Below are positions 968-12,283 of a stretch of 12,551 bases of DNA, piece after piece. Numbering within the stretch: the first letter of the stretch is position 1; each line of letters opens with the position of its first letter. A model generated the notes under the pieces. The model did no database searches and was not told the origin of the DNA. It saw only the letters and a list, made by a program, of their open reading frames with translations. The stretch covers positions 1 through 12,551 of the IMG/VR virus record IMGVR_UViG_2703719355_000002; one strand, given 5' to 3'. Position numbers and translations under genes: made by a program. Source of the stretch: a virus (taxonomy: Duplodnaviria; Heunggongvirae; Uroviricota; Caudoviricetes).

Positions 968-1582
968 TCAGGCCGCTATCAATGGAAATTCTTTCTCCAA
1001 TTCTCGTTTCATTGCATAAAACATTTCTGACTCCAGCACTTTCTCACACCACACCACTCGCTTACGACAATATTGAATATCAGCACCTGTTATATAAGAA
1101 ATCATCCTGGCTATATCTTGCGTGCAATTGCGATTGCAATATCGCTTAATAGCTACATCGCGGACGGGGCTTTCACGGTGAAAAGTCTTGACCATCACAC
1201 GTTCAACGAAAGCCGCATCATCTGATTCTTTGGCGAGAGTGATGATGTGGCTAAACGATGATTGAGGAATGACCAGTTCGCGAGCTTTCTTGTATAGCAC
1301 ATCTCCGCGCAGCCCATCTTCTTCGTACAGGCGCATGACGACAGACTCTATCTGCTTAGCCTTGTCATCGCTCCACTGACTGCGAATCATCAGACGACCG
1401 ATAACGTTAATTGCACCACCTGGAGAGCAATCTCCGGCATTAACCTTGCCCCATACCTGTAACATGTAATGAACCCATGCTTTCTGGCTAGAGTTGATGG
1501 TTTTCTTCGGGTGTCTCCATACGCGGCGAAAGTGCGCGTCATTAATGAAGTTAACCATGCTGAATACTGGAGTTAACCGCAT
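968..1582 (-). CDS. Putative late-gene antiterminator Q-like protein (204 aa from the ATG at 1582..1580)
   Basis: ORF-track ORF 968..1612; I place the start at internal Met11 (ATG 1582..1580) because it has a GGGAGG RBS 5 nt upstream and a TGATG overlap with the preceding small ORF stop. Assigned as Q by position (after rusA/nin genes, before late leader, terminator and lysis genes). I do not recognise the sequence as lambda Q or DLP12 QuuD, so the functional call is positional. Confidence 0.5.
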   Translation of the reverse strand: MRLTPVFSMVNFINDAHFRRVWRHPKKTINSSQKAWVHYMLQVWGKVNAGDCSPGGAINVIGRLMIRSQWSDDKAKQIESVVMRLYEEDGLRGDVLYKKARELVIPQSSFSHIITLAKESDDAAFVERVMVKTFHRESPVRDVAIKRYCNRNCTQDIARMISYITGADIQYCRKRVVWCEKVLESEMFYAMKRELEKEFPLIAA

Positions 1583-1725
1583 CAGACCTCCCATCCTTTG
1601 CAATGACACCACACTTCAAACATTCGTTTCACAACCTCACGGCAGTAGAAACCGCCAGTATCGCGGGTAAGATCGTAGCGATTGCCATAACGCTGGCGCA
1701 TATATCGTTCGAATGCTTTGTTCAT
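1582..1725 (-). CDS. Small hypothetical protein, 47 aa (MNKAFERYMRQRYGNRYDLTRDTGGFYCREVVKRMFEVWCHCKGWEV), possible Cys/His metal-binding
   Basis: Hand-translated; ATG 1725..1723 overlaps the rusA stop as ATGA and its TGA overlaps the Q-like ATG (TGATG). Fills the rusA-Q gap exactly; position corresponds to ylcG in DLP12. Below the ORF-track length cutoff. Confidence 0.5.
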   Translation of the reverse strand: MNKAFERYMRQRYGNRYDLTRDTGGFYCREVVKRMFEVWCHCKGWEV

Positions 1726-2084: not shown

Positions 2085-2371
2085 GACTTAATCTTCCCCT
2101 CCTTCAGCAGTATCGCCTGCGTCCTGATCACGCCTTCGAGGTGGTAAAGTCTGGCGTCTTTGTTGTCGAGAATCCTTGTGCGTCGGTCGATCTCCGCGTG
2201 GCAGTCACTACAAGCCCATGCGCCGATCAGGTCGTCAGGCTTCATCCCCGTTCCACAAATTCCAGCCATCCGGTAATGTGCCAGAACTGTAGTTTCAGGA
2301 TTGCCATTGCATACGCCGTAAATACGTACCTGGCATTCTCTGCCGCGCGCTTCTTTGCGTAGGTTAGCCAT
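2081..2371 (-). CDS. ybcO: YbcO-like DUF1364 protein (putative zinc-binding nuclease of nin regions)
   Basis: 96 aa; MANLRKEARGRECQVRIYGVCNGNPETTVLAHYR...CSDCHAEIDRRT matches my recollection of DLP12 YbcO (MADLRKAARGRECQVRIPGVCNGNPETSVLAH...CSACHDEIDRRT). GAGGGAAGG RBS; ATGGCTAA overlap with the upstream ORF stop. Confidence 0.8.
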   Translation of the reverse strand: MANLRKEARGRECQVRIYGVCNGNPETTVLAHYRMAGICGTGMKPDDLIGAWACSDCHAEIDRRTRILDNKDARLYHLEGVIRTQAILLKEGKIKS

Positions 2372-2576
2372 TTACCTTCCCTCGCAATTGAAGAATTGAC
2401 TGAAGGTCTTTTTTAATAAATATGCGAGTGCGAATTGAGCAGTAGTTTTCCTTCATTCTGGCGTAGTAATAGTCCTTTCTTTGCTTAAGTTTGTTGGCAT
2501 CCGCTGTCATCCAGTCTTTTACAGCAAACTTAATTAGCCAGCGGTGGCAGAGATACCATTTCAGGTAATCACTCAT
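2364..2576 (-). CDS. Hypothetical nin-region protein, 70 aa
   Basis: ORF in the same co-directional chain, start overlaps the ninF stop (ATGAGTGA). No family recognised. Confidence 0.45.
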   Translation of the reverse strand: MSDYLKWYLCHRWLIKFAVKDWMTADANKLKQRKDYYYARMKENYCSIRTRIFIKKDLQSILQLRGKVNG

Positions 2577-2739
2577 CGTCTTCTTCCTCGTACATTGAGC
2601 TATTCGGATCGCTCATCAGTTCTGCGCAGCAGTGCTCACACACGTGAACTTCCAGCACATGCAGCTTCTGACCGCAGTTAGCGCACGTTAAAGCTCGCTC
2701 GACGCTTTCTTGTTCGTAACTTCGATTTGGGTCAATCAC
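2569..2739 (-). CDS. ninF: NinF-like protein (start placed at GTG 2739..2737; alternative ATG at 2781 would give 70 aa)
   Basis: C-terminal [38 protein letters not shown]...EEEDD matches my recollection of lambda NinF. The GTG start has a GAGGA RBS 7 nt upstream and a GTGA overlap with the ninE stop; the ATG at 2781 would overlap ninE by 46 nt. Confidence 0.6.
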
Positions 2740-2918
2740 CTTGTATTCCTCGCACGATGTCTTAGCCACCGGATATCCCACAGGTGAGCCGTGTAGTTGA
2801 AGGTTTTTACGTCAGATTCTTTCGGGATTGGCTTGCGTTTATTTCTGTAGCGTTTCGTTGGAAGGTATTTGCAGTTTTCGCAGATTATGTCGGTGATACT
2901 TCGTCGCTGTCGCCTCAT
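2736..2918 (-). CDS. ninE: NinE-like protein (60 aa from internal ATG 2918..2916)
   Basis: [60 protein letters not shown] matches my recollection of lambda NinE almost residue for residue. ATGA overlap with the dam stop. The longer ORF-track version (start 3008) lies inside dam and is rejected. Confidence 0.75.
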
Positions 2919-3445
2919 GCCGCCCTCCTGACGCCATGCCCGATTGCCATCAATGCCGCTTTGGATACGGTAGTAAACATCCGTCGAGGACTGATGAACG
3001 GTCGCCAAATCAGCAGCATGGAGCCTTTGCTGTTTCCCTTCTTCTCCAGCCCTGTCGATGGTTCGATAAAATTAATCCGTCCATCAGTGATGATGCGAAC
3101 TTCGTCGACACTCTCCAGAGCCTTGCTGAACCATCCGACTGACATATCCTCTGGCACAAGCATCACTACCGTCTGTCGCTGTTGTATGCACTGCTCAGCG
3201 GTTTTTTCCACCCACGGCCTGATATTGCTGTACGGTGGGTTATTCCAGATTGCACCGTGGCTTATCCACTCAGAATTGAGCGCGTCGTCGACCTCAGTTA
3301 GCCAGTGAGCGCACAGAGCGTTTTTGTCGCTCGCAGCTGAATCCAGCCAGAATCCAAACTCAATATCCAGTGCATCAAAAAGCCAAAGCGGCGTTTGCCA
3401 GCAGTCTCTAACTTCTTTTGGTGTTTCTGATTTATGCTTAATCAT
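2915..3445 (-). CDS. Phage DNA N6-adenine methyltransferase (phage Dam family)
   Basis: 176 aa with the NPPY catalytic motif ([10 protein letters not shown]) and the N-terminal [12 protein letters not shown]...FGF..DSAAS signature typical of phage Dam-type MTases in nin regions. GAGGG RBS; ATGA overlap with the HNH gene stop. Confidence 0.85.
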
Positions 3446-3969
3446 TCAACCCTCGCATATTGTCCGTGATATTTGTTGATAGCCTCACTGGCAACCAAAC
3501 CAGCAAGCTCAAGATCTTCATAGAACCCAAAATGCAACCGGCCAAAATCTGTGCGCACTTGAACGGCCCATTTATTTTTTTGCTTGTTCCATAAAACATT
3601 TTTTATTCCAGAACGGCTATTGCACTTAGTTTTCTGATTTCGGCTGTTTGCTATCCGGCTTGCCTCCCTAAGATTTTTTGGGGAATTGTCCAGCCTGTTT
3701 CCGTTAATATGGTCAATATTTTTCAATGGCATTCTTTTGTTGTGCAGCGCAAAAACAACTACGTGAACAAACATCTGAATGCCTGCAAAACACACCTGTC
3801 TATACCCAGATCCATTTATCGATGTTTTAATTTCATCTCCGGCCCGGTGGCTGTGGTTGGGGTGTTTTAGCGAGTCCTTTTTGTATCTGACTGTATCTCC
3901 GTCTAAATACAGATAATCCTCAATAAGCCGATACCTATCTGACGCTGGCGTATTTGATTTGATAGTCAT
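3442..3969 (-). CDS. HNH homing endonuclease (HNH plus AP2-like DNA-binding C-terminus), 175 aa from ATG 3969..3967
   Basis: His-Asn-His motif region HVVVFALHNKRMPLKNIDHINGNRLDNSPKNLREASRIANSRN; C-terminal KNVLWNKQKNKWAVQV...HFGFYEDLELA resembles AP2-domain tails of phage HNH endonucleases. ATGA overlap with the preceding HNH gene; GGGGAGA RBS. Confidence 0.8.
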   Translation of the reverse strand: MTIKSNTPASDRYRLIEDYLYLDGDTVRYKKDSLKHPNHSHRAGDEIKTSINGSGYRQVCFAGIQMFVHVVVFALHNKRMPLKNIDHINGNRLDNSPKNLREASRIANSRNQKTKCNSRSGIKNVLWNKQKNKWAVQVRTDFGRLHFGFYEDLELAGLVASEAINKYHGQYARVE

Positions 3970-4568
3970 GCAGCACTGTCTCCCCATCTCGCTTTCATTG
4001 TTTCATTTGCAAATCGCCAGAATCTTCCTTTGTGATATGAGCTTTCGCCATTACAGCAACGACTAATTGACGAACTATCAAATCCTTCTCTGACAGCATC
4101 CATAGCTGCTTCATAATAAACCTCCTCCCCAGTTTTCATGTCAGTAGAAATAACGGCTTTACTGGCAGGGTGATCACCACTAAATTTACCTAGCGATATA
4201 GGTATTCTTCCATTTTGTTTATATCCGTGCTTTGAGTTTTCAGAATGAGATACCCATTCAAGGTTTTCAGCCCTATTGTCATCTCTTTGCCCATTTTTGT
4301 GATTAACTACCAAGCCATCACAGAACCCTGTACAGAATGCTTTCGCAACTATCCTGTGGGCGCTGTATTTCTTACCGTATACCTTTATTTGAAGATATCC
4401 TGTCGACTTGCACTTGAATGGTTTTACGCTAGTGCCATTAATTATTTTCTTATATGGCCTCTGTCTGGTTGATGTTACTGTAATTTCCCTCGCAATAGAC
4501 CTGAAATTTCCTTTATTGCTAACCTGATAAAATGGAATTCCTTCGATATCTACCCAAACCTCAATCAT
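3966..4568 (-). CDS. HNH homing endonuclease (NUMOD4-like N-terminus plus HNH), 200 aa
   Basis: N-terminal EVWVDIEGIPFYQVSNKGNFRS (NUMOD4-like), HRIVAKAF and VNHKNGQRDDNRAENLEWVSHSEN (HNH motif). GGAGGAATT RBS; start overlaps the ninB stop. Confidence 0.8.
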   Translation of the reverse strand: MIEVWVDIEGIPFYQVSNKGNFRSIAREITVTSTRQRPYKKIINGTSVKPFKCKSTGYLQIKVYGKKYSAHRIVAKAFCTGFCDGLVVNHKNGQRDDNRAENLEWVSHSENSKHGYKQNGRIPISLGKFSGDHPASKAVISTDMKTGEEVYYEAAMDAVREGFDSSSISRCCNGESSYHKGRFWRFANETMKARWGDSAA

Positions 4569-4977
4569 AATTCCTCCATTCGCTAAGATGAATTGAGTTC
4601 ATGGCACAATATGCTTCTATGTAGTCCATTATTTCGGATATTTTTTTTACAGATAGAGTCGCCGTACTCTCTCTGATGTTTATTAGCTCACCTTCTAACC
4701 CTGATATAATCTCAGGGTGCTGGTTGGTTGCAATCTGCCAACCAGAAACGAATAACCCCTTCCAAAACTCAATATTTCTTGCTTTTCCATGATATGTAGC
4801 CTTCTTACTTATTTCAGATAGCATCGCGTGAAGGCGTGCATTTTGCCGAATGCTGCGGTTGCGTTCCTGAATGGTTACTACGATTGGTTTGGTTGGGTCT
4901 GGAAGGATTTGCTGTACTGCGTGAATAGCGTTTTGCTGATGTGCCGGAGATCGAATTTCAAAGGTTAGCTTTTTCAT
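4561..4977 (-). CDS. ninB: NinB (Orf-family recombination mediator), 138 aa from ATG 4977..4975
   Basis: MKKLTFEIRSPAHQQNAIHAVQQILPDPTKPIVVTIQERNRS matches my recollection of the lambda NinB N-terminus; the C-terminal half diverges but keeps a similar pattern. GGGAGAGGGAAG RBS. The ORF-track start at 4995 is judged too far upstream. Confidence 0.85.
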   Translation of the reverse strand: MKKLTFEIRSPAHQQNAIHAVQQILPDPTKPIVVTIQERNRSIRQNARLHAMLSEISKKATYHGKARNIEFWKGLFVSGWQIATNQHPEIISGLEGELINIRESTATLSVKKISEIMDYIEAYCAMNSIHLSEWRNYD

Positions 4978-5054
4978 GACTTCCCTCTCCCCCAAATAAA
5001 AAGGCCTGCGATTACCAGCAGGCCTGTTACAAGCTCAGTGATGTAGATGGTCAT
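4974..5054 (-). CDS. Candidate 26-aa hydrophobic micro-protein (MTIYITELVTGLLVIAGLFIWGRGKS)
   Basis: Hand-translated; ATG overlaps the upstream gene stop (ATGA) and its TGA overlaps the ninB ATG (ATGA), so it fills the intergenic gap exactly. Single predicted TM segment. The same DNA also folds as a hairpin followed by a T-run on the minus strand, so it could instead be a terminator. Confidence 0.3.
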   Translation of the reverse strand: MTIYITELVTGLLVIAGLFIWGRGKS

Positions 5055-5320
5055 TGCTTCATCTCCCTTTCCATTTCATCAATGTCAACGTCATCAGGAA
5101 GATGGGAGCAATACGCCGCTATACCATGATGATTTATCTCATACCCTTTGAACGTTACCATCTGGTGCGTAATCTCAACTTCGTTCAGGAATCCGTCATC
5201 GCATAACTGCCTGGCTATTTTCGATTTGGTCTGGATTATTGGTAGTGCCTGTTCTTTCAAAGCGCATGATATTTGTGCATCCCATGCCTTTTCGAGAATG
5301 GCTAATTGTTTTTTATTCAT
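5051..5320 (-). CDS. Hypothetical protein, 89 aa (position of lambda ren, not recognisably Ren)
   Basis: GGAG RBS 6 nt upstream; start ATG abuts the primase-helicase stop (TAA at 5321..5323). Acidic C-terminus (DDVDIDEMEREMKQ). No family recognised. Confidence 0.6.
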   Translation of the reverse strand: MNKKQLAILEKAWDAQISCALKEQALPIIQTKSKIARQLCDDGFLNEVEITHQMVTFKGYEINHHGIAAYCSHLPDDVDIDEMEREMKQ

Positions 5321-7201
5321 TTAATACTCCGTCACGTTTTCCTGTCGCCACGCCTCGTCATATTCCGATTTCGGCATATTGGCGATGTAGCTATATGGCG
5401 ATCCTGATTCAAGTTGCAGGAACTGGTGCGATTGCTCGTCAAGGAACAACGGGACACCACCTTCCCAACCTTCGCCGTTACGTTGTTTTTCAAGCATCAA
5501 AACAGATGCCGGAGATGCCAGTAGCTGTTCGTCCTTCTCTGACATCTTTTCACCACTCTGAACTCTCTGTAACGCTCTCTCGCGAGCCTTGTTACGCCAG
5601 ATGATGAAAAGGTTGTCTGTCAGGTCTGTTATCGCTCCAGAGCCTTTTACGTCCATTTTCCCGGTTGGTTTTTCTTCGCTGTCTCCTTTTCGCGAGTGAG
5701 TAACGAGAATGACGTGGGAGTTTGTTTTGTTTTTGAAGTCGCAAATCGAGTCAACAAAAGCCTTCTGCCCGTTATAGTCATCGTCGCCTATGCCACATTT
5801 CATCAGGCTGTCGATGATGAATAACTGGATCCCGTATCGGCGGCGAGCGTAGTCGAATATTTCGATCAGCCTGTCGGCTTTCGCCGTTCCGGTCAGGCCA
5901 AACACCCAAAGTCTTTCGTCATAAAATTTAAATGCAGAGTCAATTTCCAGCACTGGCGGCATCTTGCAGCACGTCGCCTGACGGGTAAGGCGCTTAAGGA
6001 GAATACCAGGCTTCAGCTCAAGTGACGCGATGCACGTCTTCACTCCCTGACGCATTGCCTCAAGTGCCATATGCCCGACAACCTCCGTTTTTCCGTGACC
6101 GTTCACACCATTGACCAGCGTCAACTCTGCCTCACGGAACTGGAATTTATCTGCCAGAGATTCCCACGGTGGATTAAACAGATACTGCTGCTTGCCGTAG
6201 AAAGCGTTGATAGTGTCCTGGTAAAACTCTCGCGCACTGTAGAGTTCTTCAGGATCGAAGTAGGATGCCGTGCCGATGTACTGCCAGATTTCATCCTCGG
6301 TAACACCGTTCATCAGGCATTCGTTGATGTCTTTGTACGGCAGAGTAACAAGACGGCAACGATGTTCACCGAGTCGGCTTGCGATTTCCCTTGCGGCTTC
6401 ACGACCAACATCATCAACGTCCATCGAGATGAATATTTCCTCAAACCTGTCGAGGTTGTGGTACTCAAACTCAATCCACTGTTGCTTAGCGCCTTTCCCT
6501 CCACCAAACGGCACGGATAACGCCGAGATGCCGTATTGCGCATAGCTCATACAATCAATTTCGCCTTCGCAAAGTACAACCGCCCTCACGCCAGCGTCCA
6601 GAGCCTGCCATCCGAACAGACAAGGTTCGCAATCACCTTCTGCCATAATGACTTTCTTCCCGTCCGGGCGCTCAGTGCTGATTCGCTTGACCTGCAACAA
6701 CTCACCATCGCGTTTGTACGGAAGCACCAGTGCATCAAGTTCTCGTTCTCCATTCCACACCTTGCCGCTGACAACCTCGTAGCGCTTTACGACTTCTGGC
6801 GATATGCCACGCGATTGCAGGTACTCAAGATGGGATTCTGTTCTGGTAACGTAGCGGGCGATTTTCTTGCGGTCAGGTCTGGAGAATTTCTTCTCACGTT
6901 TGGCATCGAAATGGTGATCGTCATCCTTGATACCGAGAAATGCTTTCGCTTCCTGCATAGCCTGATGCAGGTTAATTCCACGACATGCCATCCACAAATC
7001 AAGCATGTCACCGCCGTCTCCCTCAGCGAAATCAGCCCATTTTTTCTTGCCGCTAAGGTTGACCTTAAGGCTGTTTCCCTTGTCACCGTTGACGTTACCG
7101 GCAACCCACTCATGCCCCTCTTTCTTGCCGTTTGGCAACAGGTGCGGAGCCACCCTGTCAACCTGCGCCCAAAGCAGGTCGCTGAGTTCACTTGGCCTCA
7201 T
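5321..7201 (-). CDS. Bifunctional DNA primase-helicase (Toprim primase domain plus DnaB/RecA-like helicase domain)
   Basis: 626 aa. Toprim signature: VVLCEGEIDCMSYAQYG ... ISMDVDDVGREAA. Helicase: Walker A GVNGHGKT, Walker B-like LFIIDSLMKC, ILVTHSRKG. GAGGGA RBS. Sits in the lambda P position downstream of the initiator. Confidence 0.9.
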   Translation of the reverse strand: MRPSELSDLLWAQVDRVAPHLLPNGKKEGHEWVAGNVNGDKGNSLKVNLSGKKKWADFAEGDGGDMLDLWMACRGINLHQAMQEAKAFLGIKDDDHHFDAKREKKFSRPDRKKIARYVTRTESHLEYLQSRGISPEVVKRYEVVSGKVWNGERELDALVLPYKRDGELLQVKRISTERPDGKKVIMAEGDCEPCLFGWQALDAGVRAVVLCEGEIDCMSYAQYGISALSVPFGGGKGAKQQWIEFEYHNLDRFEEIFISMDVDDVGREAAREIASRLGEHRCRLVTLPYKDINECLMNGVTEDEIWQYIGTASYFDPEELYSAREFYQDTINAFYGKQQYLFNPPWESLADKFQFREAELTLVNGVNGHGKTEVVGHMALEAMRQGVKTCIASLELKPGILLKRLTRQATCCKMPPVLEIDSAFKFYDERLWVFGLTGTAKADRLIEIFDYARRRYGIQLFIIDSLMKCGIGDDDYNGQKAFVDSICDFKNKTNSHVILVTHSRKGDSEEKPTGKMDVKGSGAITDLTDNLFIIWRNKARERALQRVQSGEKMSEKDEQLLASPASVLMLEKQRNGEGWEGGVPLFLDEQSHQFLQLESGSPYSYIANMPKSEYDEAWRQENVTEY

Positions 7202-7308: not shown

Positions 7309-8085
7309 TCACCTGTCGAAAAACACGTAGCCAGTTTTCGATACGGTGATTGCGGATGATGGTTTGGATTGTGGTTGAATAGTTTCTGGCTTCTCGTCGT
7401 TCCAGCGCTGACCGTTCAGGTAGCTCGATGGTAACAACCTGTCGAATCCGAACTGCTTACCATTCCTGCATGCGATGTCTTCTGCCAGCATCGTGGCAAA
7501 CTCGCTTGCCGTACCCCTGGTAGTTTTACGCCATTCCCTGAACTGTGTTCTGAATGCTGAAGCTGCGTTTTTCTTCCCGGCTTTCCGCATGCCTGCACAC
7601 CAGAATATTTCCTCGAACGCCTTGTCGGTTTCTTCGTGACGGTCAGGAGTTTTTTCACACTCTGTTCGGACATGTTCGAACATAATGTTTTTAGGTTCAT
7701 TGACTGGTTCAAAAGAGTGATAGGTTCTGGGGGCAGCTCCTGCCCCACCCCCTAGGGCAGCTCCTGCCCCACCCCGGGCAGCTCCTGCCCCACCTGATTC
7801 TGGTTGGATTTGTTGTGCATTATCCAGCGTCAGATAAAAAACGTTTGACTGGTTAAGCTCTCCTTTTCTTCTGAGTTCCCTTTTCAAAAGCCCCATCTCT
7901 TCCAGTGCCCTAATGTGATTTTTTACTGTCGATCTGCTCACCTCACACTGGTCAGCGACATGTTGATATGAAGGCCAGCATTCGCCATTATCATTGGCGT
8001 TATCGGCAAGTTTAATCAGAACCAGTTTTCTCAGTGGGTTGCCAACCTTTATATTCATGGCCTTAGCCATAAGATTCATGCTCAT
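7309..8085 (-). CDS. Replication initiator (O-like): N-terminal HTH DNA-binding domain, Gly/Ala linker, C-terminal DnaT-like domain
   Basis: 258 aa. N-terminal LRKLVLIKLADNANDNGECWPSYQHVADQCEVSRSTVKNHIRALEEMGLL is a typical phage replication-protein HTH; central GGAGAARGGAGAALGGGAGAAP linker; the C-terminal domain resembles DnaT-like replication proteins (lower confidence). GGAGAA RBS. Located between cII and the primase-helicase. Confidence 0.8.
   Translation of the reverse strand: MSMNLMAKAMNIKVGNPLRKLVLIKLADNANDNGECWPSYQHVADQCEVSRSTVKNHIRALEEMGLLKRELRRKGELNQSNVFYLTLDNAQQIQPESGGAGAARGGAGAALGGGAGAAPRTYHSFEPVNEPKNIMFEHVRTECEKTPDRHEETDKAFEEIFWCAGMRKAGKKNAASAFRTQFREWRKTTRGTASEFATMLAEDIACRNGKQFGFDRLLPSSYLNGQRWNDEKPETIQPQSKPSSAITVSKTGYVFFDR
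7729..7794. repeat. Three tandem copies of the palindrome GGGCAG-CTC-CTGCCC (period 24/21 bp) inside the initiator gene: candidate origin iterons
   Basis: Seen directly: ggggcagctcctgcccc at 7730..7746, gggcagctcctgccc at 7755..7769 and 7776..7790. They encode the in-frame Gly/Ala linker. Analogous to ori-lambda iterons inside the O gene. Confidence 0.6.
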
Positions 8086-8931: not shown

Positions 8932-8968
8932 TAACCTTTGTTATTTTACTTTGGATAACCGTAGTTAT
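8906..8968. promoter_or_regulatory. OR operator array: three 14-bp palindromes ATAAC-N4-GTTAT at 8906..8919, 8931..8944 and 8955..8968
   Basis: ATAACTCAAGTTAT, ATAACCTTTGTTAT, ATAACCGTAGTTAT; centres spaced 25 and 24 bp, in the cro-cI intergenic region. The same consensus recurs at the proposed OL (10710..10748). Confidence 0.65.
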
Positions 8969-8971
8969 AGA
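8966..8971 (+). promoter_or_regulatory. Candidate PRM -10 (TATAGA), which would make cI mRNA leaderless
   Basis: TATAGA lies 9 nt upstream of the cI ATG at 8981, inside/adjacent to the third operator; no good -35, as expected for an activated PRM. Weak by-eye call. Confidence 0.25.
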
Positions 8972-8980
8972 TTTGTGGGT

Positions 8981-9688
8981 ATGAAAACATTCGCAGAAAG
9001 ACTAAATGCAGCCATGAGCTCAGCAGGTGTGTCGCAATCACAGCTTGCTGACATGGTTGGAATATCTCAGCCAGCCATACAGAAGATGTCATCCGGTAAA
9101 ACAAACGGATCTCGCAAGATGGTTGAATTAGCCAATGCTTTAAAAGTACGCCCTGAATGGCTTAGCTCTGGTATTGGTGAAATGAGGGATGGTACACATG
9201 AAGAACCATCCAATGTCCGTGAATCATCTTTAAAAGCTGTGGTATGGGAAGATATTAAAAGAAACGATGACGAGTTTGTCGCGTTGCCTCTTCTTAACGT
9301 TTCGCTTTCAGCTGGAAGCGGTAGCTGCGAGCTAGAGGAATCATCAGAGTTCTCTTTGGTTTTCAGAAAGTACTATCTGAAAAAGATGGGGGTATCTGAA
9401 AGATCAGCCAAGCTAGTTAGGGTTGTAGGGCAAAGCATGGAACCAACGCTTCACGACGGAGATGTTGTTGGCGTTAACACACAAGATACCACAATCAGAG
9501 ATGGTAAAACCTACGCTATTTGCCAGTCTGATTTGTTACGAGTAAAAACATTAATCGCCACCCCAACATCGGTGATAATCAGATCAATAAATCGCGAAGA
9601 GTACCCAGATGAAGTAATGGATAGAGATGAATTTAATAAAACCGTAAGGATTATTGGCAGAGTATTCTGGTCGTCTCATAGTTGGTAA
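8981..9688 (+). CDS. cI: CI-type prophage repressor (N-terminal HTH, C-terminal LexA/S24 autopeptidase domain), 235 aa from ATG 8981
   Basis: HTH QSQLADMVGISQPAIQKMSSG; Ala-Gly cleavage site in SLSAGSG; catalytic Ser in GQSMEPT and Lys in LRVKTLI. The TTG start at 8951 proposed by the ORF track overlaps the third operator, so ATG 8981 is preferred. Confidence 0.9.
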   Translation: MKTFAERLNAAMSSAGVSQSQLADMVGISQPAIQKMSSGKTNGSRKMVELANALKVRPEWLSSGIGEMRDGTHEEPSNVRESSLKAVVWEDIKRNDDEFVALPLLNVSLSAGSGSCELEESSEFSLVFRKYYLKKMGVSERSAKLVRVVGQSMEPTLHDGDVVGVNTQDTTIRDGKTYAICQSDLLRVKTLIATPTSVIIRSINREEYPDEVMDRDEFNKTVRIIGRVFWSSHSW

Positions 9689-9723: not shown

Positions 9724-10161
9724 ATGATTAAAGAACGTATTTCTTATATCATTCCGATTGCGATGGATGAAGGCAACCCAGTAACTCCGGTTCTTATCTA
9801 TGAAATGGATAAAGACTCCCATGAAGTGGATCTATCATTTGGCGCTTTTTTTATCGGCCTTAAGGCTACAAAAAAATATTCCATAGGCATTGAGGTTTTC
9901 AATGCTCAAGAAATACCGATACCAATTGACACAAAACTGTACTCCAACCATAAGTTTTTTACGGTAGCAGAAGCCAACGATGGAGAAACCATCGTATCAA
10001 CTTCTATGAGAATTAACTTCCCAAGGGTGAAAATTATCAAGCCTGGGATATTCGAAGTTAGAGCATCACTGGTTAATCCTGATAAAGGCGAAGTAATTGA
10101 TGTAAAAAGTTCGTTTTTTGACGTGAAGATAACAGGATCAGTTCGCGATGAGTTTAGATAA
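9724..10161 (+). CDS. Hypothetical protein, 145 aa, first gene of the cI-linked cargo cassette (rexA position)
   Basis: ORF begins 36 bp after the cI stop, same strand; AT-rich; no motif I recognise. Its 3' end overlaps the next ORF by 14 bp. Confidence 0.6.
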   Translation: MIKERISYIIPIAMDEGNPVTPVLIYEMDKDSHEVDLSFGAFFIGLKATKKYSIGIEVFNAQEIPIPIDTKLYSNHKFFTVAEANDGETIVSTSMRINFPRVKIIKPGIFEVRASLVNPDKGEVIDVKSSFFDVKITGSVRDEFR

Positions 10162-10519
10162 CAAGGTTGCTCAGCTTCGTCCAAATCAAAACATATCTCG
10201 CCCAATTGGACACTATTCAACTGATGATGCATACTCACGGCATGGTGGAGGAAACGGCGGAGGTAACATGCTTGAGGCTAGAGTTGCAAAGCTAGAGTCT
10301 GATGTTGAATACATCAAGCGCGATATCGCTGAGGTAAAGTCAGATATAAAATCTGTAGATTCTCGTCTGTCAGGTATTGAGACAAGCATTAACTCAGCAA
10401 AAACCACCATCAAGGCATCTGCGGTCGTTGTCAGTTTCGTGTTCGCATTTTGCGCCTACATTTTTGGAAGTTATGTTTCCAAAATCCTTGATGCCTTAAA
10501 CGGACTCGTTCTTAAGTAA
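10148..10519 (+). CDS. Hypothetical membrane-anchored coiled-coil protein, 123 aa (possibly 83 aa from Met41), second gene of the cassette (rexB position)
   Basis: Gly-rich N-terminus (SRHGGGNGGGN), heptad-like coiled coil (LEARVAKLESDVEYIKRDIAEVKSDIKSVDSRLSGIETSIN), single C-terminal TM helix (ASAVVVSFVFAFCAYIFGSYV). Architecture resembles XhlA-like small membrane proteins. The alternative start at 10268 has a GGAGGT RBS. Confidence 0.6.
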   Translation: MSLDNKVAQLRPNQNISRPIGHYSTDDAYSRHGGGNGGGNMLEARVAKLESDVEYIKRDIAEVKSDIKSVDSRLSGIETSINSAKTTIKASAVVVSFVFAFCAYIFGSYVSKILDALNGLVLK

Positions 10520-11914: not shown

Positions 11915-12283
11915 ATGTCAAACATCAAAAAATACATCATTGATTACGACTGGAAAGCATCAATAGAAATTGAAATCGACCATGACTTAATGACAGAGGA
12001 AAAACTTCACCAGATTAATAATTTCTGGTCAGACTCTGAATACCGACTCAATAAACACGGCTCTGTATTAAATGCTGTATTAATCATGCTGGCGCAACAT
12101 GCTCTGCTTATAGCAATTTCAAGCGACTTAAATGCATATGGTGTTGTGTGTGAGTTCGACTGGAATGATGGAAATGGTCAGGAAGGATGGCCTCCAATGG
12201 ATGGTAGCGAAGGAATAAGAATTACCGATATCGATACATCAGGAATATTTGATCCAGATGATATGACTATCAAAGCCGCCTGA
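11915..12283 (+). CDS. Ea10-like protein (by position upstream of cIII), 122 aa, acidic C-terminal half
   Basis: ORF-track ORF; occupies the lambda ea10 position. The name is positional and from memory of the lambda gene order; I cannot verify the sequence. Confidence 0.55.
   Translation: MSNIKKYIIDYDWKASIEIEIDHDLMTEEKLHQINNFWSDSEYRLNKHGSVLNAVLIMLAQHALLIAISSDLNAYGVVCEFDWNDGNGQEGWPPMDGSEGIRITDIDTSGIFDPDDMTIKAA

Follow-up and report, generated by a model that had tools for sequence, protein, structure and literature searches.

Two putative free-standing HNH homing-endonuclease genes at the ninB-dam junction of a lambdoid prophage

The immunity, replication and nin region of a lambdoid prophage is contained in a stretch of viral DNA of 12,551 nucleotides (nt) from the IMG/VR record IMGVR_UViG_2703719355_000002 (Caudoviricetes), the whole of which was analysed and is referred to here as the window. 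In this region, two HNH endonuclease genes, designated HNH1 and HNH2, are located between ninB and dam, the gene of a phage N6-adenine DNA methyltransferase. We propose that HNH1 and HNH2 are separate free-standing homing-endonuclease genes of the I-HmuI/HNH_3 type, each tied to a different host gene, and we assign this explanation a probability of roughly 80%. The two genes would be neighbors because their target genes, ninB and dam, abut in the lambdoid nin operon. A preliminary description of this DNA had considered two independent homing insertions as one of two explanations for the pair, and this possibility is strongly supported by the existence of single-nuclease alleles, of empty alleles and of insertion boundaries that can be placed exactly. 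Both genes are present or absent at a fixed site in homologous genomes; donor flank travels with the nuclease, and the target is split in the filled alleles. Both products have an HNH core, an HNH_3 score above the Pfam cut-off and accessory DNA-binding modules of the NUMOD, helix-turn-helix (HTH) or AP2 kind.

The two nuclease genes and their insertion boundaries

The four genes at the junction are all on the minus strand. A 138-amino-acid (aa) variant allele of ninB (4977-4561; Pfam NinB PF05772, E 1.2e-40) is followed by HNH1 (4568-3966, 200 aa), HNH2 (3969-3442, 175 aa) and dam (3445-2915; PF05869, E 2e-64), the last with an intact NPPY motif. Both open reading frames (ORFs) of the tandem HNH pair reported in the preliminary description are found, at 3442-4568. 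The start of HNH2 is the ATG at 3969, which corresponds to Met7 of the mechanically called ORF beginning at 3987. Reading of the sequence gives an ATGA overlap between HNH1 and HNH2 (3969-3966) and another between HNH2 and dam (3445-3442). The ATGA overlaps attributed earlier to the pair hold at these two places, but not between ninB and HNH1, where the overlap is the 8-nt ATGATTGA (4568-4561). The GGAGG Shine-Dalgarno sequence of HNH1 is located inside ninB.

Breakpoints were determined by DNA alignment of the window to L004, a locus with a lambda-type ninB, to the empty alleles of phages 933W and mEp213, and to alleles with a single nuclease. Such an alignment of the junction with prophages lacking the HNH genes had been suggested as a check, and it yields base-exact boundaries. 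Compared to L004, the window has 100% identity down to 4852, is unrelated from 4851 to 3997, and becomes identical again from 3996. With respect to the lambda-type ninB allele, the HNH1 cassette (3997-4851, minus strand) is composed of divergent ninB codons 43-138 and HNH1 codons 1-190. Codons 1-42 of the window ninB are identical to lambda-type ninB, and codons 43-138 encode a divergent homologue with ~25% aa identity. The last 10 codons of HNH1 (KARWGDSAA*) are the former 3' end of the lambda-type ninB; all 30 nt of the HNH1 tail in L001, a locus with HNH1 only, agree with the 3' end of the L004 ninB (30/30).

Alignment with the empty and single-nuclease alleles also identifies a 53-nt remnant of the ancestral junction of the ninB 3' and dam 5' ends (3944-3996, minus strand). 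From the old ninB the remnant retains the tail, and from the old dam the Shine-Dalgarno sequence and the first 26 nt, together with the ATGA overlap of both genes; it now forms the end of HNH1 and the start of HNH2. These 26 nt, the start of the uninterrupted dam, are the first 9 codons of HNH2 (MTIKSNTPA). The ancestral junction survives between both genes, and each nuclease gene is a chimera to which the displaced terminus of a host gene is joined in frame.

Compared to the empty and HNH1-only alleles, the HNH2 insertion (3407-3943, minus strand) places 537 nt (179 codons, in frame) where 10 nt (ACACGACAAG) were located. It includes a replacement dam 5' end (3407-3445, minus strand), in which a different 13-codon stretch takes the place of MTIKSNTPAHDK and which has its own GAGGG Shine-Dalgarno sequence inside the 3' end of HNH2. 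From codon 14 on, the window dam is of the same type as the solitary dam gene in 933W-like phages. In another locus, L021, a 78%-identical relative of HNH2 precedes a very divergent 188-aa Dam beginning MIKHKSQTPIESRDCW, and the replacement dam end of the window closely resembles the dam 5' end of L021 (MIKHKSQTPIESR). The simplest reading of these alignments is that the replacement dam codons would be donor flank moved along with HNH2, as in homing co-conversion. Transposon insertion was considered and rejected; terminal inverted repeats and target-site duplications are absent at 3407/3943 and at 3997/4851, which fits recombination-based insertion rather than transposition.

HNH1 is a free-standing, I-HmuI-like gene with Pfam NUMOD4 and HNH_3 domains. 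The NUMOD4-like N-terminus noted earlier for one of the two proteins is confirmed by a NUMOD4 score of 51.1 bits (cut-off 23.4), and the HNH_3 score is 45.0 bits (cut-off 24.8); a match to the I-HmuI NUMOD-like family is sub-threshold (19.2 versus 27). By sequence, the best solved relative of HNH1 is I-HmuI (PDB 1U3E), which aligns with residues 55-186 at an E-value of 5e-14. In this alignment, H90, N98, N102 and N111 of HNH1 correspond to H75, N83, N87 and N96 of I-HmuI. The proportions of nonsynonymous (pN) and synonymous (pS) differences from a 77%-identical relative, 0.14 and 0.79, respectively, indicate purifying selection on HNH1. HNH1 matches the homing-endonuclease model of PADLOC with an E-value of 3e-26, and this model is the only one that PADLOC gives for either HNH1 or HNH2.

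HNH2 has an HNH_3 score of 42.6 bits against the cut-off of 24.8. The AP2-like C-terminus ascribed to the second protein in the preliminary description is not detected by Pfam on HNH2 itself; it is borne out by homologues and by structure prediction. PF00847 (AP2) is matched by 12 of 20 HNH2 homologues. In the AlphaFold model of HNH2, with a predicted local distance difference test (pLDDT) score of 86.8, a module of three strands plus a helix is located at residues 125-171, and comparison of the model to a plant AP2 domain (7et5) with Foldseek yields a probability of 1.00 and a root-mean-square deviation (rmsd) of 1.8 Å over 51 columns. The best fold match of the HNH2 model in the PDB is I-HmuI, with a probability of 0.99 but a weak E-value of 0.004; comparison of HNH2 with solved structures by sequence gave no meaningful match. 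HNH2 is a free-standing endonuclease gene with HNH_3 and a predicted AP2 fold. Residues D86, H87, N95, N99 and N108 are invariant across the HNH2 homologue alignment. Catalytic residues, whose absence from careful alignments was named in the preliminary description as a ground for refutation, are present in both nucleases. The ratio of nonsynonymous to synonymous substitution rates (dN/dS) between HNH2 and its 78%-identical relative P0123 is 0.09, again indicating purifying selection. It should be mentioned that frameshifted or truncated copies of HNH1 (P0004, P0006) and of HNH2 (P0122, P0125, P0126) are found in public protein data; some of the breaks are at short homopolymer runs, and these copies may reflect real decay or sequencing errors.

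The two nucleases follow different host genes. HNH2 and P0123 are always located directly 5' of a dam gene, and the genes upstream of them vary, including NinB types of 146 and 148 aa, a 141-aa weakly NinB-like ORF and DUF1367. HNH1 relatives with 59-77% identity, seen in Salmonella phage SEN22, two read assemblies and a Klebsiella prophage (SEN22, L022, L023, L024), are preceded by ninB or a ninB-like gene, with which they share the same overlap of 8 nt; downstream of them is NinD, NinE or an ORF of no assigned family, and not dam. A 54%-identical Pseudomonas relative of HNH1 is also found in a nin-like region, there preceded by a gene without a family assignment.

Empty, filled and decayed alleles

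Counts were made in 5426 complete E. coli genomes, in which the empty junction was detected with a 76-nt probe across the uninterrupted junction at a coverage of at least 80%. In the empty allele, ninB abuts dam with an ATGA overlap. The uninterrupted ninB-dam junction is present in 1524 of the 5426 genomes, which makes the empty state by far the commonest allele, and phages 933W and mEp213 also have it; universal conservation of the pair without empty sites, which the preliminary description named as an argument against mobility, is not what is observed. The HNH1-only allele is seen in L001, L003 and Shiga-toxin (Stx)-converting phages. HNH1 is found in 77/5426 genomes, always together with the divergent 3' part of ninB (77/77). 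The HNH2-only allele is present in 36 of the genomes, with L004-L006 and L013-L020 as examples. HNH2 is absent from the phage database, even by sensitive blastn, and has been seen in prophages and metagenomes only.

The tandem arrangement was found in none of the 5426 genomes (none covers 80% of 2700-5400), and a scan for an exact pattern bridging HNH2, the junction and HNH1 returned nothing in three large collections of genome, viral and metagenome contigs. Exact-protein look-up located it in the contig CYGN01000091.1 (GCA_001286505.1), to the full length of which the window corresponds, in a 100%-identical read assembly that is probably from the same isolate as the window, and in one metagenome scaffold, which is 99.5% identical to the window with a 21-nt indel. 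Only two independent cases were found. This rarity fits the earlier remark that freestanding homing endonucleases usually occur singly, with the tandem arising where two target genes abut. E. coli 23CRST013 (NZ_AP045773.1) has HNH2 and HNH1 in different prophages, at about 1.20 Mb and 2.03 Mb, which indicates that chances for the two nucleases to meet exist. The tandem would have been formed when an L003-like HNH1 phage gained HNH2, or the reverse, by homing or by plain recombination. Since the junction remnant of the window has L003-type polymorphisms, acquisition of HNH2 by an L003-like HNH1 phage would be the simplest origin. Homing and ordinary recombination in the shared flanks would yield the same tandem product.

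The replacement dam 5' end is found in 42 E. coli genomes, compared to 36 with HNH2, and four extra loci were examined. In E308 (L027, 1558-2004), HNH2 was lost via GAGGG microhomology, and NinB now ends in the last two codons of HNH2 (...RVE). In TW10590 (L028, 1558-2004), HNH2 was removed by a deletion from ATGA overlap to ATGA overlap. An internal deletion of HNH2 via CTATCAA microhomology in E2 (L029, 1558-1600) left a 14-codon mini-ORF, and in strain 503440 (L030, 1558-1900) HNH2 is truncated by IS100. In all four independent HNH2-loss alleles, dam is intact and the replacement dam 5' end is kept, which indicates that HNH2 is dispensable for dam. This decay series matches the invasion-decay-loss pattern of homing endonuclease genes, which, according to the model of Goddard and Burt, reportedly invade, decay and are lost. 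The footprint alleles are predicted to resist re-invasion.

Gene neighbourhood in the window

Upstream of ninB on the minus strand are a Toprim/DnaB-like primase-helicase gene (7201-5321) and an ORF of 89 aa (5320-5051) that abuts the primase stop and has no credible Pfam family. An intrinsic-terminator-like hairpin (5025-5002, minus strand) is located 5' of ninB at the place of lambda tR2. Downstream of dam are, in order, ninE, ninF, a 70-aa ORF, ybcO, rusA and a Q-like gene. The frequency of promoter-like sites across 2800-5400 does not exceed that in shuffled sequence, with none above chance between the hairpin and dam; HNH1 and HNH2 are therefore probably transcribed as part of the early-right operon. 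Further HNH_3 genes, some with AP2 or NUMOD4, are located in related prophages at other intergenic positions of this operon, namely cII/O, O/primase, primase/ninB, ybcO/rusA and after rusA (L004 4510-5121; L002 4008-4619; L013 2466-3077; L015 873-1301 and 6776-7300; L018 904-1395; L023 5417-5986; L026 5139-5594). The early-right operon seems to be a hot spot for HNH_3 elements.

Several other features of the window are noted. The 70-aa ORF between ninF and ybcO (2364-2576, minus strand) has only a GNAT_C match below the cut-off, and the 214-aa ORF at the position of the late antiterminator Q (968-1612, minus strand) has no credible Pfam family. The replication-initiator gene (8085-7309, minus strand; HTH_36) contains a 21-nt tandem repeat of 2.9 copies (7731-7794) that encodes a GGAGAA-rich peptide. 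The replication protein has 265 aa in the metagenome copy L011, compared to 258 aa in the window, and a single indel separates the two DNAs, which suggests that the copy number of the 21-nt repeat varies; the repeat could be a slippage-prone linker or belong to an origin. Downstream of the cI-like repressor gene (8951-9688) are two overlapping plus-strand ORFs. The first (9724-10161) has no family match. In the second (10148-10519), residues 42-96 give a weak sub-cut-off match to XhlA, and the C-terminus includes a hydrophobic stretch. Judging from their position, the two ORFs may be accessory genes expressed during lysogeny, either rex-like or for superinfection exclusion. A DUF2528 protein (11915-12283, plus strand; E 3e-46) is encoded to the left of the immunity genes.

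Homing, alternative explanations and related systems

According to the proposed explanation, each enzyme would recognize the allele without it through its NUMOD4/HTH or AP2 module and, judging from homology to I-HmuI, would nick or cut near the insertion point. I-HmuI is known for its nicking activity. Recombinational repair from a nuclease-bearing phage would then copy the nuclease gene together with adjacent donor sequence, as the observed flanks suggest. HNH1 travels with the divergent 3' two-thirds of ninB, and its reading frame ends in what were the last 10 codons of the lambda-type ninB that was displaced. HNH2 is lodged within the first dam codons, using the ribosome-binding site, start codon and first 9 codons of the old dam, and gives dam a substitute 5' end of 13 codons with a Shine-Dalgarno sequence. 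Both nucleases would be translated by coupling to the upstream gene, consistent with the overlaps and Shine-Dalgarno sequences that are observed, and would share the early-right transcript. Filled and footprint alleles would be protected, the target being split or the flank replaced. The element later decays by microhomology deletion or by insertion of an insertion sequence (IS), both of which are seen, and the resulting alleles lack the nuclease but retain the replacement dam 5' end.

Several points weigh against homing as the explanation. Both elements are rare, with HNH1 in 1.4% and HNH2 in 0.7% of the E. coli genomes, despite abundant empty sites, and a higher frequency might be expected of an element that homes efficiently. 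Cleavage, nicking and homing by HNH1 and HNH2 are predicted activities, and their putative target sites are placed solely by the insertion boundaries. HNH1 has Asn89 at the position of the I-HmuI metal ligand Asp74; Asn is found there in 18 of the 20 aligned subfamily members, and the substitution is probably tolerated, since it is kept across the HNH1 subfamily. The adjacency of HNH2 and dam, taken alone, fits both dam as the homing site and a need of HNH2 for dam. The same allele patterns could also result from ordinary mosaic recombination among lambdoid phages.

One alternative, which would be an added benefit beyond pure selfishness and is compatible with homing, is that the nucleases have been co-opted for phage competition, so that cutting the ninB or dam alleles of rivals excludes those rivals or favours the flanking markers of the nuclease-bearing phage. 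Precedents exist for homing endonucleases in phage competition and at exchange boundaries (PMC11620839, PMC10448857, PMC2790892), and E. coli genomes often have several lambdoid prophages with different junction alleles, as in 23CRST013. The sequence does not distinguish this role from plain homing, and the recurrent losses of HNH2 speak against any strong benefit. We regard such a role as not very likely.

A second alternative is that both nucleases are inert passengers, with the allele patterns produced by ordinary homologous or illegitimate recombination among mosaic lambdoid prophages and neither nuclease spreading by itself. The highly mosaic nature of lambdoid nin regions is consistent with this possibility, as are the infrequency of both elements where empty sites are many and the frameshifted and truncated copies in public data; the 53-nt shared junction and long flanking homology would permit the tandem to form by simple recombination. 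However, strong purifying selection and invariant catalytic residues are observed across homologues with 45-98% identity. The HNH1 clade keeps to one host-gene end across Escherichia, Salmonella and Klebsiella, and the HNH2 clade keeps to the dam end across two very different dam lineages, with the donor-type dam flank moved together with HNH2. The selection, the fidelity to a host-gene end and the moved flank would be expected of active homing elements rather than of neutral cargo, and we consider the passenger explanation unlikely, even more so than a role in competition.

The least probable alternative is the other possibility raised in the preliminary description, that the nucleases and Dam form a functional unit, either restriction-modification-like or anti-restriction, in which Dam methylation would shield the DNA of the phage from one or both HNH nucleases, and these would attack competitor or host DNA that is not methylated. 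HNH2 and its relative are indeed always directly upstream of dam and translationally coupled to it, and the three genes form one overlapping string. However, the same dam is mostly solitary, with 1524 uninterrupted-junction genomes compared to 36 with HNH2; HNH1 relatives occur without any dam; and four losses of HNH2 have left an intact dam behind. Both nucleases are of the I-HmuI-like class of homing enzymes with long targets and of no restriction-enzyme family, and the best PADLOC match of Dam is to orphan methyltransferase models. The functional unit is therefore not supported, and we hold it to be very improbable. Type II restriction-modification was rejected on two grounds, the lack of obligate co-occurrence of nuclease and methylase and the lack of resemblance to restriction or defence models in PADLOC. 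Protection through Dam sites was likewise rejected, as sequence alignment around the inferred target shows that GATC is not conserved, being present in lambda-type junctions and absent from the 933W type and from the window. HNH nucleases associated with terminase (cos cleavage) were also dismissed, the two genes being part of the nin region, with the replication genes on one side and Q on the other, away from terminase and cos.

Free-standing HNH homing endonucleases of phages are well known, and the present pair opens no new category; RefSeq already annotates the HNH1 and HNH2 proteins as NUMOD4/HNH endonucleases. We have compared the two genes to several known systems. HNH1 aligns with I-HmuI of the I-HmuI/I-HmuII group (Bacillus phages SPO1 and SP82; Pfam HNH_3, NUMOD) over the catalytic H, N and N and the C-terminal DNA-binding region, and HNH1 and HNH2 are, like I-HmuI, small and monomer-sized, with an HNH core and modular DNA-binding domains. 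Unlike I-HmuI, which is encoded inside a group I intron, both are free-standing, and HNH1 has in addition an N-terminal NUMOD4 module and Asn at the Asp74 position. HNH-AP2 proteins are an established homing-endonuclease class in the account of Magnani et al. 2004 as cited in PMC10448857. HNH2 shares the N-terminal HNH and C-terminal AP2 fold with such enzymes of phages, cyanobacteria and protists (the "IPA-HNH" of ICP1, PMC10448857) and, like the IPA-HNH genes of ICP1 phages (PMC10448857), is located at a sequence-exchange boundary between related phages. It differs from this class in that its AP2 domain is too divergent for the Pfam model, its host is a lambdoid prophage, and its insertion is within the first codons of a methyltransferase gene.

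The mob and seg genes of T4-like phages, such as mobE between nrdA and nrdB (PMC2790892, PMC2988022), are likewise intron-less and occupy the gaps between conserved genes or the ends of such genes. They share presence/absence polymorphism, flanking-marker co-conversion and expression from the surrounding operon with HNH1 and HNH2 (PMC2790892, PMC2988022). Unlike mob and seg genes, the HNH1 and HNH2 ORFs are fused in frame to displaced terminal codons of host genes, and the element supplies a substitute gene end that keeps translational coupling along ninB-dam. The mobility of mobE has been shown experimentally, whereas that of HNH1 and HNH2 is predicted. The HNH element of ShiLan in an actinophage DNA methylase gene (PMC11855218) is, as is proposed for HNH2, a homing element with a phage methyltransferase, and the methylase is apparently functional. 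However, the ShiLan HNH is inside the methylase ORF in another frame, whereas HNH2 is a separate upstream ORF that displaces and replaces only the first 12 dam codons. For lambdoid or Stx phages, the literature searched contained no description of nucleases at the junction of ninB and dam, which is no proof that none exists.

The useful details are that host-gene termini are captured in frame, that dam is supplied with a substitute end, and that the allele series is complete. It is conceivable, though at this stage rather doubtful, that terminal-codon capture is a rule among the HNH homing endonucleases of lambdoid nin operons. Insertion would take place a few codons within a terminus of the host gene; the element would appropriate the start (or stop) of this gene and its translational coupling, and would contribute a diverged substitute for the terminus. 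In a more remote version, both I-HmuI-like enzymes would be nickases whose adjacent sites on one junction cooperate in a double-strand break. If terminal-codon capture is true, later deletion of the nuclease would leave a nuclease-free allele resistant to re-invasion. If it is general, it would explain many of the sharp mosaic boundaries at lambdoid gene ends, and the empty, filled and footprint alleles would constitute a natural series for a cycle of invasion, decay and resistance.

Around one 53-nt junction, empty, HNH1-only, HNH2-only, double and decayed footprint alleles are all available, base-exact, in public genomes. The explanation given here corrects a tempting reading of a nuclease beside a methyltransferase as a restriction-like module. 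It depicts how selfish nuclease genes can settle within the termini of two genes coupled in translation with neither gene broken, and how such elements would make the sharp mosaic boundaries of lambdoid phages, including the Shiga-toxin phages, which commonly have HNH1. The alleles also offer concrete substrates for the homing cycle, a process that has received little study in temperate phages.

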